A stretch of 64,000 nucleotides of DNA, taken from positions 9,815 through 73,814 of the forward strand of contig JBLNBS010000053.1 of assembly GCA_050260175.1 (NCBI GenBank). Reading direction: 5' to 3'. The DNA comes from Patescibacteria group bacterium (lineage in GTDB: Bacteria; Bacillota; UBA4882; JAAYXC01). The notes beneath the pieces were generated by a model. The model ran no database searches, was not told where the DNA came from, and was given only the letters and a program-made list of their open reading frames with translations. The position numbers were made by a program, and so were the translations under genes. Positions within the stretch are counted from its first letter, which is position 1. Each line of letters starts with the position of its first letter. Below are positions 6,688 to 61,157 of the stretch, in pieces.

Positions 6688-7027
6688 CACTCCCCTGGAG
6701 TCTGTGCAGCCGGCCCGATTCATGGTCCCGGAGCACTGACTCCGGTTATAAGTGCCACGCGTTCAGCTGTGTCCGGTGATCCATGGCGCTACAGGCGCAG
6801 GCTCCCTGGCGCCGGGATGTGAAGAAACTTGCCGCCCGCGGCGTGATTAACAGGACAATTATACCATGAGCCGGAGGGGCGGGCAACGCAAACTCCCGCT
6901 AGCGCCAGGTGGTTTTTTACTTTACGTGTCCGCACTGGAAAAGTTGTGATAAACTCACCCTTGTTCACACCGCCTCTACCGAAAGCGTCGGTAAAGACTC
7001 AAACCCCGGGCGGCGCGGCTCCGCGCC

Positions 7028-7068: not shown

Positions 7069-7156
7069 GGAGGGGTGTCCGAGCGGTTTAAGGAGACGGT
7101 CTTGAAAACCGTTAGGCTGCAAGGCCTCGTGGGTTCGAATCCCACCTCCTCCGCCA
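7069..7156 (+). tRNA. tRNA-Ser, anticodon TGA (UGA); CCA encoded
   Basis: GGAGGGG acceptor stem pairs with CCTCCTCC (one G-U pair). Anticodon loop CTTGAAA. Long variable arm. T arm GGGTTCGAATCCC. 3' CCA at 7154-7156. Confidence 0.85.
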
Positions 7157-7221
7157 AGGAGCCTGTGCGCGTAATGCCACGGACCACTAGATACAGTGGT
7201 ACCGCGTGGCACTTGATACCA

Positions 7222-7267
7222 GAGTTTGTGCTCCGGATGCCATTAATCAAGTTAGTCGCACAAACTC
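7222..7267 (+). other. Hairpin in the inter-tRNA spacer: GAGTTTGTGC, 26-nt loop, GCACAAACTC
   Basis: Perfect 10-bp inverted repeat. An additional hairpin at about 7186-7216 (GCCACGG ... CCACT AGATAC AGTGG ... CGTGGC). Confidence 0.4.
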
Positions 7268-7316: not shown

Positions 7317-7408
7317 GGAGAGGTACCCAAGCCGGTCGAAGGGGACGGTTTGCTAAACCGTTAGTGGTCGTAAGGCCAGCGGGGGTTCGAATCCCCCCCT
7401 CTCCGCCA
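7317..7408 (+). tRNA. tRNA-Ser, anticodon GCT (GCU); CCA encoded
   Basis: GGAGAGG pairs perfectly with CCTCTCC. Anticodon loop TTGCTAA. Long variable arm. T arm GGGGGTTCGAATCCCCC. CCA at 7406-7408. Confidence 0.85.
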
Positions 7409-7416
7409 AAGATCAA

Positions 7417-7449
7417 CGGGGTGGTCAAGATGACCACCCCGTTTTTTTT
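7417..7449 (+). terminator. Rho-independent terminator after the tRNA pair
   Basis: CGGGGTGGTC, loop AAGAT, GACCACCCCG, followed by eight T residues. Confidence 0.75.
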
Positions 7450-9171: not shown

Positions 9172-10032
9172 GTGAACGGCGTGGCATATGAGTTCCGCCC
9201 CCGCGGCGTGGGCGAGATCGTGGACGCCGCCTTTAGAATCTATCGCAATCACTGGTGGACGCTGGTCAAGAGCGTGGGCGTCATCCTCCTTCCGCTCGGT
9301 TTCCTTCAGGCCGGGCTCCAGTCCCTGAGCCAGTACGCCCTCTTCCGCCTCGGCAACATGGGCGGGGACGCCAGTCCCGGCGCGGTCCTGGGCACCCTGG
9401 GCCTGACCCTCTTCGGCCAGGTGCCGGCCCTCCTCTTTGTCCTGGCCAACCTGGCCACCGAGGCCATCGTGACCAAGGAGGCCGCCATGGCCTGCCACGG
9501 CGAGGAGCCCACCCTCAACGCGGCCTGGGCCGCGGTCAAGGAGCGCCTGGGGCAGATCATCGGCGCCGGGCTCCTGTTTCTCATCATGACCGTACTCGGC
9601 TTCTGTTGCTGTTGTATCGGCGCGCCGGTGGTGATGGTCTTTTTCGCCCCCCTGACCGCCCTCATCCTGATCGAACGGGCCGGGGTCGGGCAGGCCATCC
9701 AGCGCAGCTTTAACCTGGTCAAGGCGGAGTTCTGGCGCGTGCTCGGCGTGATGCTCGTGCTCTTTCTGATCCTGGGCGTGGTGGGCGCGGCCCTCTGGCT
9801 CGTGGTCGGATTCGCGCTGGGTATGAGCGCCGGCAGGGATCTGCTCCGATTCATCTCGGCCATGAGCGGGGCGAATCCCCTGGTATATTTCCTCATCTCG
9901 TTTTTCACCACCATCTACAGTATCGTTCTAGCCCCGCTCTATCCCATCGGGCGGACGCTCATCTACTACGATCTGCGCGTGCGATTGGAGGGTTACGACC
10001 TCGAGCAAGCTACCGTCGGTACGGAATCCTGA
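9172..10032 (+). CDS. Polytopic membrane protein, paralog 2 of the preceding gene
   Basis: N-terminus EIVDAAFRIYRNHWW parallels GDLLDAAFRGYRRFW of the previous gene. Both end in a YYxxDL...EG motif. Confidence 0.6.
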   Translation: MNGVAYEFRPRGVGEIVDAAFRIYRNHWWTLVKSVGVILLPLGFLQAGLQSLSQYALFRLGNMGGDASPGAVLGTLGLTLFGQVPALLFVLANLATEAIVTKEAAMACHGEEPTLNAAWAAVKERLGQIIGAGLLFLIMTVLGFCCCCIGAPVVMVFFAPLTALILIERAGVGQAIQRSFNLVKAEFWRVLGVMLVLFLILGVVGAALWLVVGFALGMSAGRDLLRFISAMSGANPLVYFLISFFTTIYSIVLAPLYPIGRTLIYYDLRVRLEGYDLEQATVGTES

Positions 10033-15542: not shown

Positions 15543-15922
15543 AGCTAGTACTCCTTTAGATCTGGCATTGGCGGGTACAATTCCACGCCGGATTGAGGAT
15601 ATCCTGCGTTGAATGATCCTGGTCGTTCCCCCTATCCCCGTGCGATCCGCTAAATTGTCCTGACGGAGGAGGGGTGCAATATATTGCGCCACTACACAGG
15701 ACCGATAGGTCGAAAACCTTTTCACCATTGGATCCTTGATCGGCTTTTAAGTCAACCGGTCTAGGCTTCATCGACCAACCCTTGCTCCCCCCGGGAGATA
15801 GAGGGCCTCTTCTTCGACCATCCCCAAGATCGGCGTGAACGTTTAGCCTCTCCGCCTCCCGATCCCCCGCCCGCTGCGCATACTACCTTTGCGAATCGAG
15901 ATCAAAAAGGAAGCGAAACGCC

Positions 15923-18377: not shown

Positions 18378-18399
18378 GAGGCGAGGCATGCCTCGCCTC
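18378..18399. terminator. Perfect palindrome hairpin GAGGCGAGGC AT GCCTCGCCTC between convergent genes
   Basis: 10-bp stem with a 2-nt loop, no U-tract. Confidence 0.4.
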
Positions 18400-26686: not shown

Positions 26687-26795
26687 CCGCGCCCGCCTCC
26701 CGTCCGGGCGCCCGCCTCGGACGCGGGCACCCGTTGTATCCGCTTTTCACACCGTTTTTGGAAGAGATGACGGATGGATGTTTTGGATTCGCCTC

Positions 26796-26856: not shown

Positions 26857-27009
26857 ATGCACGAACGGGAGAGACTGGACAGGCTCTATACCGCTTTTGC
26901 CGAGGCATTGCCCGCGGACAGGGCGAGGATCCTGGCCGGCGTCGCCGGCGTTCTGTTGCGGCCGGCTGCCGGCGGCGGCGCCATACCGGCACCGCGGCTC
27001 ACCTGTTGA
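26857..27009 (+). CDS. Small ORF (50 aa), hypothetical
   Basis: Strong promoter and RBS GAGGAGG 6 nt before the ATG. Its 3' end overlaps the 3' end of the convergent PP-loop gene by 11 nt. Confidence 0.4.
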   Translation: MHERERLDRLYTAFAEALPADRARILAGVAGVLLRPAAGGGAIPAPRLTC

Positions 27010-28027
27010 CCCGCCAGGGTCCGATCAGCCCGGGCGGCACGGGATGCACGCTCAAAACCTCCTTGACGGGGCGGCCGCCTGCGGCGGAGAGGATCTTGAC
27101 CCGCGCCGCGGCACCGTCCGGCAGGTCCGCGTATCGCGCGGTCAGGCCGGCCGCGGCGCGCAGGTCCTCCTCGCCGGGCGCCCCGAGGACCAGGGTCAGA
27201 GGACCAGGCACGCCCGCCGCGTGCAGGAGCCGGCGGTCCAGGGGCCTCCGGCGGAAATGCCGGGCGAGCGCCGCGTTTTCCTCTTGGTTGCGGCCCACGA
27301 TGACGGATGCCCGCGCGCTTGGGCGAAAGTGCCTTCCCAGGGCGGCCAGGGGGATATCCTCCAGGGGCACGCGCCCCAAGAGATCGAGCAGGTTGCGGTA
27401 GCGGTCCGCGTACTCGCGGTACGTCAGGAGGCAGCCGCCGGCCGGCGCGGGATAGCTGAGCCCCCTGGCGCGCGCCATGGCCTCCTGCACCGTGCGCCCC
27501 CGTCCGGCCAGGTCCAGCAGGCGTTCGCGATCCACCCAGCCGCGCTGCTCGGGAATGGTCGGCGGCAGGAGGCGGGCGGAAAGAGGGCGCAGGACTAGAC
27601 CTTTCAGTCCGGCCTCGCGGTCGGTGATGAAAAGCGCTTCCCGCCTCTGCGACATGGGCCTCTGCCCCACGACCTCGCCCGTGGCCAAGAAGGACGCGCC
27701 GACGGCCGGCATCAGCCCGGCCGCTTTTTTTAACTGGTAGATCCGGCAGTCCTGGCAGGGATTGAAGTTCTTGCCATGCCCAAACTTGGGGTGGGCCACG
27801 ATCTCCGCCAGTTCCTCGCCGGGGGTCAGGATGTGCGGGGTCACGCCAAGTTGCGCCGCGGCGGCCCGGATCTCATCCAACCCTCCGCCCTTGGCGCTCT
27901 TGATGAAAGGCAGCGCCAGGTGGACCGCCTCGACCTCCACCCCCTGCTCCTGCAGGAGGACGATGGCCAGGAGGCTGTCCAGCCCGCCAGAGAAAAGCAC
28001 GAGCGCCTTGGGCCTCTCCGCTTGCAT
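26999..28027 (-). CDS. PP-loop superfamily ATP pyrophosphatase (tRNA-thiolation, LarE, ThiI or MnmA-like)
   Basis: KALVLFSGGLDS PP-loop and a downstream CQDCR motif. Start ATG 28027. The tool's longer N-terminus would translate the intergenic repeat. Confidence 0.7.
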   Translation of the reverse strand: MQAERPKALVLFSGGLDSLLAIVLLQEQGVEVEAVHLALPFIKSAKGGGLDEIRAAAAQLGVTPHILTPGEELAEIVAHPKFGHGKNFNPCQDCRIYQLKKAAGLMPAVGASFLATGEVVGQRPMSQRREALFITDREAGLKGLVLRPLSARLLPPTIPEQRGWVDRERLLDLAGRGRTVQEAMARARGLSYPAPAGGCLLTYREYADRYRNLLDLLGRVPLEDIPLAALGRHFRPSARASVIVGRNQEENAALARHFRRRPLDRRLLHAAGVPGPLTLVLGAPGEEDLRAAAGLTARYADLPDGAAARVKILSAAGGRPVKEVLSVHPVPPGLIGPWRVNR

Positions 28028-28040
28028 GCCGGGTCTTCCT

Positions 28041-28243
28041 TCCCATCCCCCGGAGGGGGCGACTGTCGTGTTTCCAAGAAACTTCCTCGAACATCCCTGC
28101 ACGGCCCAGAGAGGACCGTTCGGGCGGTGTCTCGGGTTTACCCCCTATCCCCCGGAGGGGCAACCGTCGTGTGTTTCCAAGAGACTTGCTCGAACATCCC
28201 TTGCTCCCTCCGGGAGATAGAGGGTTTCTTCTTCGCGAGACCC
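28041..28243. repeat. Tandem intergenic repeat of about 100 bp (units at about 28041 and 28141); its tail TTGCTCCCTCCGGGAGATAGAGGG-TCTTCTTCG is also present at 15778-15824
   Basis: ATCCCCCGGAGGGG, GTCGTGT(G)TTTCCAAGA-ACTT-CTCGAACATCCC repeated twice. Contains C5-GGA-G5 and CTCCC-TCC-GGGAG mini-hairpins. Confidence 0.55.
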
Positions 28244-28267
28244 AAGTCATTCTCCCGGATACTTTAC

Positions 28268-29554
28268 TCACGGTGACGCCGGGCTATTGGCACGGGCAAA
28301 ATCCGCCATCTCCACCACCCGGCCGGTCAGGCGTGACTCCTCGGCGGCAAAGGCCATGAGGTGGCTCTGCACCGAGACGGCCGCCGAGGTCAGCGCGGCC
28401 TCGGGCCGGCCCTCCCGCAGGGCCTCGGCAAAGGCGCGCATCAGGCCTCCGTCCCCGCCCGCATGCCCGCCTGCGGCGCCGGCCAAGGGAACGGTCTCCT
28501 CCCCGCCGCCGAAAACGCGCAGGACGATCTCGCCCTTTTCCATGTGGCCCGCGATCTCGCCGGCCGTGCCCATGATCTTGATCGTGCGCGAGATCTCCCG
28601 CGTCAATCCGCACATCGTGAACGCCGCCGTCGCGCCGTTCGTGAATTCGAGCACCGCGACCTGGTGGTCCACCACGTCGTTGTCGCAGGCAAAGACGCAG
28701 CGCCCGTAAGGCCCCTCACGCAGGGCCGCGGTCCTGGCCGCAAGCGAGGTGTCCAGGCTGATGACCGAGACGGGCCAGCCCGTGTTTTCTCCGAGGTAAA
28801 TGCGGCGCGCGGAGAAGGGGCAGTCCGGCTCGGCCCGGCAGCCGTCCAAGCAGCGCGCGGCCGCGCCGGGAGGCGCGTTCTCACGCTTGAAAAAAGAGAG
28901 GGAGCCGAATGAGGCCAGGCGCGCGCAGTCGGCGCCCGCCAGCCAGAGGAGGATGTCCATGTCGTGGCAGCTCTTTGCCAGGATCATGGGATTCGACTCA
29001 TCGCGCCGGCGCCAGTTGCCCCGGACGTAGCTGTGGGCCATGTGCCAGTAGCCCACGTTCTCGTTGTGCTGGATGGAAACGACCCGCCCGATGCGCCCCT
29101 CGTCGAGGAGCTTTTTGATGGCGGCAAAAAACGGGGTGTAGCGCAGTACGTGGCAGATCATGAGCAGGCGCCCTGCACGGGCCGCCGCCCCGGCCATGGC
29201 GACACACTCCGCCGCGGTCGGCGCCATAGGTTTTTCCAAGAGCACGCCGTAGCCCTGGGCGAGGGCGGCCATGACGGGATCGTAATGCATCCTGTCCTGG
29301 GTGGCGACGATCAAGCCCTCGGCCAGCCGGGGCCGGGAGAGGAGATCCTCCCAGGAGGCAAAGGTCATTTCGGGTGGTATGCCGTGCCGGGCCGCGAACG
29401 AATCCCGCCGGTCGCGGCGCGGCTCGGCCACGGCCGTAAAGCGGAACTCCCCGGGGTGGCCGAGGACGTACTCCCCGTACGCGTCGGCGCCGCGGTTGCC
29501 CGCTCCCAGCAGGGCCAGGGTCACCGGGCCTCTTTCCGCGCCCATGGTCATCAA
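28268..29554 (-). CDS. Gfo/Idh/MocA-family NAD(P)-dependent oxidoreductase
   Basis: N-terminal Rossmann fold (LALLGAGNRGADAY) and a C-terminal alpha/beta domain. 428 aa. Confidence 0.85.
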   Translation of the reverse strand: MMTMGAERGPVTLALLGAGNRGADAYGEYVLGHPGEFRFTAVAEPRRDRRDSFAARHGIPPEMTFASWEDLLSRPRLAEGLIVATQDRMHYDPVMAALAQGYGVLLEKPMAPTAAECVAMAGAAARAGRLLMICHVLRYTPFFAAIKKLLDEGRIGRVVSIQHNENVGYWHMAHSYVRGNWRRRDESNPMILAKSCHDMDILLWLAGADCARLASFGSLSFFKRENAPPGAAARCLDGCRAEPDCPFSARRIYLGENTGWPVSVISLDTSLAARTAALREGPYGRCVFACDNDVVDHQVAVLEFTNGATAAFTMCGLTREISRTIKIMGTAGEIAGHMEKGEIVLRVFGGGEETVPLAGAAGGHAGGDGGLMRAFAEALREGRPEAALTSAAVSVQSHLMAFAAEESRLTGRVVEMADFARANSPASP

Positions 29555-37482: not shown

Positions 37483-37505
37483 GCTCCCACCCCTCCCCCA
37501 TCCCA

Positions 37506-37535
37506 CCCCCTCCTCGATTGGGAGGGGGTTTTTTT
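37506..37535 (+). terminator. Rho-independent terminator: CCCCCTCC, loop TCGATTG, GGAGGGGG, then seven T residues
   Basis: Lies 24 nt after the stop codon of the beta-helix gene. Confidence 0.75.
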
Positions 37536-37708
37536 ATGGGGGTATGGCTTTGCCGCATCGGGGCTTGTATCGCGCCTCCGGGATGGGCAATCGCACGACC
37601 GCTTCCAGAGGCGGATAAGGAACCGCGAAGCGCGGTTGAAGCCAGCAGGAAAACCTCTGGTTTGACAGAAAGCTATCGCAAGCGGAGGTTGCAAAGGAGG
37701 CTGCATAA

Positions 37709-59331: not shown

Positions 59332-60079
59332 CCTGCGTTTCGCCGGGGTCAGCCACGGTTTCGGCAGGCTCCCCGTGCTCGCGGCGCTCGACCTCGCGGT
59401 GGCGCCGGGTGAGGTCGTGGCGATCCTGGGACCGAGCGGCTGCGGCAAGACGACGCTCCTCCGCCTGGCGGCGGGGCTGCTCGCGCCCGCCTCCGGCAGG
59501 ATCGAGCGCCCGTCGCGCGTGGGCATGGCGTTTCAGGAGCCGCGGCTCCTGCCCTGGCGGGACTGCCTGGGGAACGTGCTTTTTGGCGTGGACGGCCCGG
59601 TCACGGCCGCGCACCGGGCGCGGGCCGGCGAATTACTGGCAGCCCTGGGGCTTTTGGGATTCGAATCGTACCGGCCCGCCGCCCTCTCGGGCGGTATGGC
59701 ACACCGCGTCTCGCTTGCCCGCGCCCTGATCGGCCGGCCGGAGCTGCTCTTGCTGGATGAGCCGCTGGCCGGCATGGATTATTTCGGCCGCACGGACCTG
59801 GAGGAACGCCTGGCGTCGCTCTGGCGCGAGGAACAGCCGGCGGTGCTGCTCGTTACCCACGATCCCGACGAAGCACTCTACCTGGCCGATCGCATCCTGA
59901 TCCTCTCGCCGCGCCCCGGCAGGATCGTGGCGGAACAGCGGGTGGCGGCGGCCCGGCCGCGCGACCGGCTCGCGCCGGACGCAGCCGCGGCCAGGGCGGT
60001 GTTACTGGCCGCTCTGAGACGCGCCCGGGAATCCTCCGCTCCGGATCCGGGCGACGCGATCTCCACGTCTCAACCCTGA
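59324..60079 (+). CDS. ABC transporter ATP-binding protein, NitT/TauT (SsuB-like) family
   Basis: Walker A GPSGCGKTT, signature LSGGMAHRVSLARA, Walker B LLLLDEPLAGMD. Confidence 0.9.
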   Translation: MVSLRFAGVSHGFGRLPVLAALDLAVAPGEVVAILGPSGCGKTTLLRLAAGLLAPASGRIERPSRVGMAFQEPRLLPWRDCLGNVLFGVDGPVTAAHRARAGELLAALGLLGFESYRPAALSGGMAHRVSLARALIGRPELLLLDEPLAGMDYFGRTDLEERLASLWREEQPAVLLVTHDPDEALYLADRILILSPRPGRIVAEQRVAAARPRDRLAPDAAAARAVLLAALRRARESSAPDPGDAISTSQP

Positions 60080-61058: not shown

Positions 61059-61077
61059 CCCCTCACCCCCAACCCTT

Positions 61078-61157
61078 CTCCCATGGAGCCCATGGGGAGA
61101 GGGGAGCCCTTGGGCTTTAGACCCCGTTGGTTTTGCCCTCTCCCACCGGGAGAGGGC
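61078..61157 (+). terminator. Two GC-rich perfect hairpins with 3-nt loops (CTCCCATGG-AGC-CCATGGGAG and GCCCTCTCCC-ACC-GGGAGAGGGC)
   Basis: Directly downstream of the substrate-binding-protein stop codon. No U-tract. Same hairpin style as the intergenic repeat family. Confidence 0.4.

Follow-up and report, generated by a model that had tools for sequence, protein, structure and literature searches.

Inverted GC-rich doublets in a Bacillota-like genome match the terminal arms of DUF559 gene cassettes

Introduction

What kind of element fills the 240-nt spacer (28028-28267) between two minus-strand genes, an oxidoreductase gene and a PP-loop ATPase gene, in a 64,000-nt stretch of bacterial DNA? 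The stretch, hereafter the window, comprises positions 9,815 to 73,814 of contig JBLNBS010000053.1 (GenBank assembly GCA_050260175.1), which is binned as a Patescibacteria group bacterium, and window coordinates are used throughout. An earlier reading of the letters alone (the original prediction) described tandem repeats in this spacer, with a part that recurs 12 kb away, and saw in them a family resembling repetitive extragenic palindromes (REPs) or miniature inverted-repeat transposable elements (MITEs) that could not be assigned to a described family. Here we report that the repeats are made of one GC-rich module arranged in inverted doublets and that this module matches the terminal arms of cassettes carrying DUF559, a Vsr-like PD-(D/E)XK endonuclease gene. 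On balance, we lean toward the reading that the window repeats are empty, non-autonomous relics of a selfish DUF559 cassette bracketed by inverted GC modules.

Results

Inverted modules at two loci

The ends of the repeat units and the "tail" of the original description are one and the same module in opposite orientations, with a 20-nt inverted repeat at 28140-28159 and 28206-28225. The core of the module is GC-rich and 21 to 25 nt long, with the form C5-YCC-G5-ATAG-G5; on the minus strand, the sense strand for the neighboring genes, it reads GCCCCC-TCC-GGGGG-ATAG-GGGGC, and the arm type of the window modules is CCCTCTATCTCCCGG. Four to five arms occur at two loci in the 64 kb, as inverted doublets: doublet A (28140-28225), beside which lies a local duplicate of its interior and right arm (28038-28098), and doublet C (15627-15806, with inverted units at 15627-15639 and 15784-15806). 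In these doublets, terminal inverted repeats enclose a short non-coding interior. The parts are given below, with bit scores and E values from R1, a covariance model built only from six arms of three foreign cassettes (L069-L071, see below), whose E values are rough.

28226..28246, minus strand: outer flank common with the 15.7-kb copy (66-nt local alignment); reads CTTGGGTCTCGCGAAGAAGAA
28203..28225, minus strand: left (5') arm of doublet A, inverted repeat I1; reads ACCCTCTATCTCCCGGAGGGAGC; R1 25.1 bits, E 4.5e-4, the best match
28162..28202, minus strand: interior of doublet A (41 nt), which is the body of direct-repeat unit A; begins AAGGGATG
28140..28161, minus strand: right (3') arm of doublet A; reads GCCCCTCCGGGGGATAGGGGGT; R1 24.1 bits, E 7.9e-4
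28099..28139, minus strand: non-repeated spacer between units A and B, not significantly similar to the sequence that precedes unit A
28061..28098, minus strand: body of direct-repeat unit B, which copies the doublet A interior
28038..28060, minus strand: degenerate arm of unit B; reads GCCCCCTCCGGGGGATGGGAAGG; R1 15.8 bits, E 0.11
15784..15806, minus strand: left arm of doublet C; reads GCCCTCTATCTCCCGGGGGGAGC; R1 21.2 bits, E 4.5e-3
15681..15783, minus strand: interior of doublet C; its first ~21 nt (15783-15763) are homologous to the doublet A interior and the rest is unrelated
15627..15680, minus strand: right arm of doublet C, in which a loop insertion of ~25 nt (by eye) lies between CCCCCTATCCCC and GGAGGAGGGGTGCAA

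The left arms carry a compensated change from a C-G to a U-A pair, seen in doublet A as the hairpin CUCCC-loop-GGGAG. On the right side of doublet C, GGGGAUAGGGGG forms 12 bp with the left arm, including two G.U pairs on the minus strand; GGGGATAGGGGG stands at 15639-15628, after the unrelated stretch of the interior. The recurrence of CCCCCTATCCCC at 15628, which had been pointed out before, is real but not significant when taken alone; its place in the element is that of pairing partner to the arm at 15784-15806. The 3' end of the unit B arm also serves as the Shine-Dalgarno region of the PP-loop gene (ATG 28027).

DUF559 cassettes bounded by the same module

The complete cassette occurs in metagenomic contigs as a DUF559 gene between inverted modules of ~23 nt, each composed of a C-run, 3 nt, a second C-run, a 3-nt loop, and a G-run. 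In contig L034, such a doublet encloses a 122-aa open reading frame (ORF) that belongs to DUF559 (PF04480, E 3.5e-31), begins 28 nt past the left arm, and stops 5 nt short of the right arm. The L034 protein has >1000 homologs, the closest named ones being labeled Spirochaetota. Three of its homologs (70-84% identical), on contigs L069-L071, lie in three unrelated neighborhoods and are each bracketed by the same arms, so that DUF559 cassettes with module arms were seen in four different genomic contexts. Within a cassette, the 3-nt spacers of the two arms co-vary (TGT/ACA and TGA/TCA in L069-L071), and the tetranucleotide that is CTAT/ATAG in the window appears in the cassettes as CTGT or CTGA.

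When R1 was run over the 64-kb window (128 kb searched), the four window arms were its four best matches (25.1, 24.1, 21.2, and 15.8 bits, with the E values listed above). The right arm of doublet A, moreover, contains an exact 20-mer of the cassette arms that is also found in the right arm of L069. By these two measures, the family that had been considered unassignable matches the terminal arms of DUF559 cassettes. The start of the doublet A interior, AAGGGATG, likewise resembles the 5' untranslated region (UTR) and start codon that follow the left arm in the cassettes.

A wider scan of metagenome contigs found the exact 23-mer GCCCCCTCCGGGGGATAGGGGGC in ~10 independent, unrelated AT-rich contexts, and a strand-symmetric 20-nt arm pattern at 46 loci. 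About 24 of these 46 were set aside as two conserved protein-coding motifs (..WFTLYPPEGLLFRDL.. and ..NTLYLPEGKKPL..), together with a few poly-G/C artefacts. A second, inverted copy lies 30-425 nt away in seven contigs (L017, L023, L025, L034, L037, L040, and L052), and the polarity of every inverted pair is that of the window doublets, with the extra C-run and its 3-nt spacer on the outside; solo arms occur in other contigs. Among representative genomes of the Genome Taxonomy Database (GTDB), the 21-nt pattern CTCCCNCCGGGAGATAGAGGG gave only four chance matches, in coding DNA of unrelated taxa, and neither a pattern scan of viral contigs nor a blastn search of plasmids found anything. One further contig, L031 (14.9 kb, 34% GC), has two direct arm copies, at 177 and 363, along with eleven tRNA genes, and may represent an organelle, phage, or tRNA-island context.

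Three of these contigs form an internal-deletion series. L052 carries the same DUF559 gene as L034 with an internal deletion, and L040 retains only 74 nt of interior, made up of the 5'UTR, the first codons, and the last codons. L034 is also syntenic with L012, L014, and L042 (55 nt of identical flank plus the arm on one side, 1.5 kb at 86% identity on the other) and has arm-gene-arm where those three have a solo arm, a presence/absence polymorphism. On the cassette reading, each window doublet would descend from a cassette insertion that later lost its gene, or from a copy of the arms alone; the series L034 > L052 > L040 shows a loss of this kind elsewhere. Mobilization of an empty doublet would require the nuclease in trans, and the target of that nuclease might be the extruded hairpin or the G.T mismatches of the paired arms.

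These observations also bear on the possibility that the repeats are a REP family, organized as REP doublets forming hairpins (REPINs) and mobilized by a REP-associated tyrosine transposase (RAYT, a Y1 HUH transposase), with DUF559 genes as merely frequent neighbors. REP palindromes adjoin a conserved GTAG (or CGTC) head, and the window modules have none, their tetranucleotide being CTAT/ATAG. A Pfam search of the ~55 window ORFs returned no Y1 transposase. REP sequences are normally lineage-specific, whereas the 20-mer described above is common to distant AT-rich genomes. In L069-L071, no further arm was found within 10 kb on either side of the DUF559 gene, and across these 20 kb the arms stand only at its two ends. 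What a REP system does account for is the architecture, since short imperfect palindromes, inverted doublets, long hairpins, and intergenic position are the definition of a REPIN (PMC3337134), as well as the solo arms in other contigs. On balance, we judge this explanation unlikely. The earlier REP- or MITE-like description holds in that the elements are non-coding, palindromic, intergenic, arranged as inverted doublets, and absent from the orthologous site in relatives; membership of the REP/RAYT class is the part that found no support, with neither the head nor, among the ~55 window ORFs, a transposase.

DUF559 genes in other phyla

A tblastn search of PLSDB with the L034 protein located DUF559 genes in 36 replicons. 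We examined ten, from Picosynechococcus, Synechocystis, Pseudanabaena, Sphingobium, Sphingomonas, Azospirillum, Methylobacterium, Neisseria, and two Deinococcus (phyla Cyanobacteriota, Pseudomonadota, and Deinococcota). By eye, GC hairpin sequences composed of C-runs and G-runs lie beside the DUF559 gene in all ten. By set criteria, at least one hairpin falls within 150 nt of the gene in nine of the ten, the adjacent ones in Neisseria being imperfect. Under a fixed criterion, 22 hairpins lie within 150 nt of the gene as against five farther away in an equal amount of sequence; the background in the window, by the same criteria, is 0.22 per kb (14 hairpins). Inverted repeats often flank the gene on both sides, as in Pseudanabaena (40 nt), D. 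psychrotolerans (45 nt, perfect), and Sphingomonas (23 nt), and the cyanobacterial modules share the layout of the window module (TTCCCC-GATTC-GGGG-GCTAG-GGGGC; GTCCCCC-AGAATT-GGGGG-ATTTAG-GGGGC).

Annotated DUF559 proteins in L060 (495-962) and L067 (321-857), and protein P0241, carry Pro/Gly-rich N- or C-terminal extensions (..LLPSPVGEGPGVRP.., ..PLPQPLPPAGGEP..). Because these are translations of the flanking GC hairpins, they look like a systematic over-extension of gene calls.

The original prediction also counted the hairpins near 61 kb among the relatives of the repeats. Two strong GC stem-loops without U-tracts do exist there, at 61074-61112 and 61135-61157, right after the stop codon of an NMT1-type binding-protein gene (-60 kcal/mol for the region), and they share the design of C-run, 3-nt loop, and G-run. 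They are not of the same sequence family as the repeats, however, because R1 recognizes neither of them. The first (CCTCACCCCCAACCCTTCTCCC...GGGGAGAGGGGAGCC) has the three-run layout (CCTCACCCC, C-run, loop, G-run) typical of modules that flank DUF559 in Synechocystis, and it is similar to the one that precedes the DUF559 gene there (CCTCACCCCTAGCCCCCTCTCC...GAGGGGGAAC). In a tblastn comparison, it is even matched weakly by the C-terminal extension annotated for that Synechocystis protein.

A published screen lists DUF559 with the families whose genes are most often found between inverted repeats (PMC9881135), and another paper groups it with Vsr and a homing endonuclease of the Vsr fold (PMC3424549). 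The DUF559 passages of these two papers and of PMC1189080 contain no description of flanking hairpins. The term DUF559 stands in no title or abstract of the papers found to mention it, and the DUF559-associated hairpin module is apparently undescribed.

Taken across these taxa, a broader proposal can be made tentatively, as one that may well prove wrong: DUF559 genes with inverted "three-run" GC arms may form a widespread class of selfish mobile cassettes that spawns REPIN- or MITE-like empty doublets and solo arms, an analog of RAYT and REP on a different enzyme fold. Sightings of such a class would comprise Spirochaetota-like contigs, Cyanobacteriota, Deinococcota, and Pseudomonadota, with relics in the Bacillota-like genome of the window.

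Extent of the repeats

All sequences quoted in the original prediction were found where it had placed them, and self-BLASTN of the 64-kb window together with shuffling bears out the repeats as such. The two best self-matches of the window, tRNA genes excepted, are 28147-28201 against 28045-28098 (56 nt, 87.5% identity, E 3e-9) and 28190-28235 against 15771-15816 (46 nt, 89% identity, E 3e-9). The second is the 3' module said to recur 12 kb away, and local alignment extends this similarity to 66 nt (28181-28246 against 15763-15828). A degenerate unit pattern has two exact matches in the window, as does a tail pattern, and none is expected by chance for either (100 dinucleotide-preserving shuffles). 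Separate Logan assemblies of run SRR24035586 give identical sequences for both loci. The two tandem units of ~100 bp had to be revised, however. Direct repetition is present, but the unit is ~55 nt long with a period of 102 nt, and the remaining half of each claimed unit has no significant similarity to the other (1287 of 2000 shuffles score equally well). We rejected the 100-nt tandem unit on the dissimilarity of these 5' halves.

We consider it quite improbable that the repeats reflect local turnover only, that is, slipped duplication together with ordinary GC terminator-like hairpins and no mobile family. Such turnover would leave unexplained a 66-nt match between sites 12 kb apart, the ranking of the arms as the top four matches of a model made from foreign cassette arms, a doublet polarity equal to that of the cassettes, and the lack of U-tracts and terminator calls. 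It draws what support it has from the restriction of the family to two known loci, from the abundance of C/G hairpins in GC-rich genomes, to which the 14 in the window attest, and from the 61-kb hairpins, which look like plain post-stop stem-loops.

Strains, relatives, and coding potential

The spacer is bordered by the following genes.

28268-29554, minus strand: GFO/IDH/MocA oxidoreductase
26999-28027, minus strand: PP-loop ATPase with a C-terminal NFACT-R_2 RNA-binding domain

Twelve close homologs of the PP-loop protein are 336-355 aa long, and two independent gene calls give 342 aa with the ATG at 28027. By both, the 367-aa ORF reaching 28102 is spurious, and its false N-terminal extension is explained by the repeat, as the original prediction had proposed. 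Doublet C is flanked by an amidohydrolase gene on the minus strand and by a DUF255 gene in divergent orientation.

We compared the locus with L006, a strain whose PP-loop protein is 98% identical, and with orthologous loci at 66-72% protein identity in L007, L010, and L011. The site lacks the element in all three of the latter. In L010 (71% identity), the PP-loop gene shares an ATGA overlap with the oxidoreductase gene; in L011, a 158-nt spacer of unrelated sequence separates them; and in L007 (70% identity), the PP-loop gene has another neighbor. The motif was not found in the 11-15 kb available of these three loci. Because relatives at this distance lack the element, it is a lineage-specific insertion rather than a conserved leader. 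Since the same genes overlap in L010, the insertion probably uncouples the gene pair, and it may act like the stem-loops of REPs or bacterial interspersed mosaic elements (BIMEs), by blocking mRNA decay or by causing partial termination. Doublet A would now be a REP-like stem-loop between two formerly coupled genes.

Between the strain L006 and the window, unit A has an indel of 1 nt and unit B one of 2 nt, and the three substitutions in the unit A ORF are all non-synonymous (0 synonymous). These indels fall in the candidate mini-ORFs, and the claim that the repeats are non-coding stood up against the alternative of coding sequence; the window doublets are non-coding and lineage-specific. A reading of two small ORFs (MFEQVSWKHTTVAPPGDRG and MFEEVSWKH...) as leader or bioactive peptides has next to no chance of being right, although a GGAGG-like site precedes an ATG in each unit and the first nine codons are alike. 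Beyond codon 9 the units are mutually out of frame, the 15.7-kb copy has a stop after five codons, and the mini-ORF reading (MFEQVSWKH...) is rejected because of the indels between the window and L006.

Two further differences between these loci were noted. L006 has an extra 156 nt at 2292-2447, corresponding to ~26771-26772 of the window between the PP-loop and UPF0182 genes, with no arm motif and no obvious inverted ends. In L007 (13407-14402), the PP-loop gene lies ~2 kb from a Cas6 gene, and the window has no CRISPR features nearby.

Folding and expression signals

Both doublets fold on the minus strand into stems of 12-24 bp, and doublet A forms a 24-bp stem of -52.8 kcal/mol in the minus-strand transcript. 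The whole 240-nt spacer is more stable than its shuffles (z = -3.15). RNA folding thus agrees with the palindromic character first suggested for the repeats, at both loci. Every mismatch between the arms is G.U on the minus strand and A.C on the opposite strand. Rfam searches returned only tRNAs or noise (gathering thresholds for the whole window and for 14 metagenomic loci; permissive thresholds for 27950-28350). No sigma-70-like promoter was detected at the elements of the three loci, and a terminator scan did not call them; they have no U-tract, and their stems are not followed by T-rich sense sequence. By contrast, a textbook intrinsic terminator lies on the plus strand at 37505-37537, after a DUF1565 gene, where ACCCCCTCC-TCGATTG-GGAGGGGGT is followed by T7.

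One might read the repeats as a cis-regulatory 5' leader RNA of the PP-loop gene (a riboswitch, attenuator, or thermosensor) that was duplicated in tandem. The element does lie directly upstream of that gene on its sense strand, the unit B arm adjoins the Shine-Dalgarno sequence, the fold beats its shuffles, and the wobble pairs suit the sense strand. Nevertheless, Rfam offers no match, the element is missing upstream of the orthologs at 66-72% identity (one of them lacks a spacer altogether), the same module lies upstream of an unrelated amidohydrolase gene, and the divergence between strains is near neutral. A regulatory leader is accordingly very improbable.

Other features of the window

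At 66% GC, and with gene content and close homologs in Bacillota/Firmicutes/Clostridia (Capillibacterium for the PP-loop protein), the window is Bacillota-like, and the bin label "Patescibacteria group bacterium" is probably wrong. Two long-arm tRNA genes (7069-7153 and 7317-7405) are accompanied by an 86-nt inverted similarity at 77% identity (6728-6811 against 7152-7236) and, just downstream, by a 29-nt near-palindrome (7415-7443). Self-BLAST also revealed perfect palindromes at 18378-18399 (22 nt) and 59534-59551 (18 nt).

Discussion

The window doublets combine features of several known systems. They can be compared with REP, BIME, and REPIN sequences and their RAYT genes in Enterobacteria and Pseudomonas, with which they share an imperfect palindrome of 20-40 nt, inverted doublets with a short spacer that form a long single-stranded DNA or RNA hairpin, an intergenic position in which they are transcribed with their neighbors, and an associated gene that is itself flanked by inverted repeats. 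Unlike those systems, they lack the GTAG/CGTC head, their module is common to distant taxa rather than private to a lineage, and the associated gene, where present, encodes a Vsr-like PD-(D/E)XK protein of DUF559 rather than an HUH Y1 transposase. REPs and REPINs number tens to hundreds of copies per genome; here, four to five arms have been seen so far, in 64 kb.

Bacterial MITEs (Correia/NEMIS, ERIC/IRU, RUP, and Nezha) offer a second parallel, in that terminal inverted repeats surround a short non-coding interior and insertion falls between genes or cistrons, where it may affect mRNA. MITEs derive by internal deletion from a gene-bearing parent; the ends seen here bracket DUF559 genes in other organisms, with the deletion series L034 > L052 > L040, and no parent was found in the organism of the window. 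The window elements differ in showing no target-site duplication, a putative parent without a recognized transposase, and terminal repeats each of which is a hairpin itself, with a third, competing C-run. The cassette protein belongs to the same fold family as Vsr and the Vsr-fold homing endonucleases (I-Bth0305I), and the cassettes show a similarly selfish presence/absence distribution; DUF559 cassettes, however, are free-standing, without an intron or intein, and are bounded by inverted hairpin modules. Ordinary intercistronic or post-stop GC stem-loops and terminators likewise place GC stems on the sense strand directly behind a stop codon, with a likely effect on mRNA 3'-end stability or read-through, whereas here there is no U-tract and the pairing is long-range, between two modules. 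Integron attC sites, too, are imperfect palindromes; they delimit small mobile gene cassettes and form hairpins in single-stranded DNA. The DUF559 cassettes, however, have no integrase, no R-box (GTTRRRY), and no array, and their single gene has two inverted arms where an integron cassette has one attC.

Several observations weigh against deriving the window repeats from a DUF559 cassette. The module is of low complexity, being composed of C and G runs, and convergence is therefore possible. The similarity between the two window loci, at 66 nt, reaches beyond the arm, and nothing in the cassettes corresponds to its outer part (CTTGGG..CGAAGAAGA). The 64 kb yielded no more than 4-5 arms, at two loci. 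Arms that are nearly identical were seen with a single DUF559 clade, whose closest labeled relatives are Spirochaetota with 37-52% GC, compared with 66% in the window. No relic of a DUF559 gene was found in the doublets: Pfam had no match in any frame of both interiors, and tblastn of eight DUF559 proteins against the interiors gave noise only, the comparison yielding no more than hints (AGCAAGGGATG resembles CACGCAAAGGGAAATTATG, and FEQVSWKH resembles EERVLWTH). The Pfam scan of the ~55 window ORFs also detected neither a transposase of any other kind nor a DUF559 gene. No direct repeat flanks either doublet as a target-site duplication would, and no empty site was seen in a close strain. The spacer is 95.7% identical between L006 and the window, in line with third codon positions of the flanking genes (94-98%), and the arms (one change in 68 nt) do not differ significantly from the rest of the spacer (10 in 172 nt). 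Finally, the mobility of the cassette and the role of its nuclease are both inferred. With these points taken into account, a DUF559 cassette origin remains the reading toward which we lean.

For the organism itself, the consequences appear minor. The insertion accounts for a wrongly called gene start and for the 240 nt that separate two genes overlapping in a relative, and it has probably added a strong stem-loop to the oxidoreductase/PP-loop transcript. The implications for DUF559, which is among the commonest nuclease families of "unknown function," would be broader. If the gene and its arms are mobile and leave REP-like debris, DUF559 would gain a biological role, and a class of GC hairpin repeats in many genomes would be accounted for. 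The paradigm of REP and RAYT, in which palindromic repeats are kept by a dedicated nuclease, would then extend to a second enzyme class.

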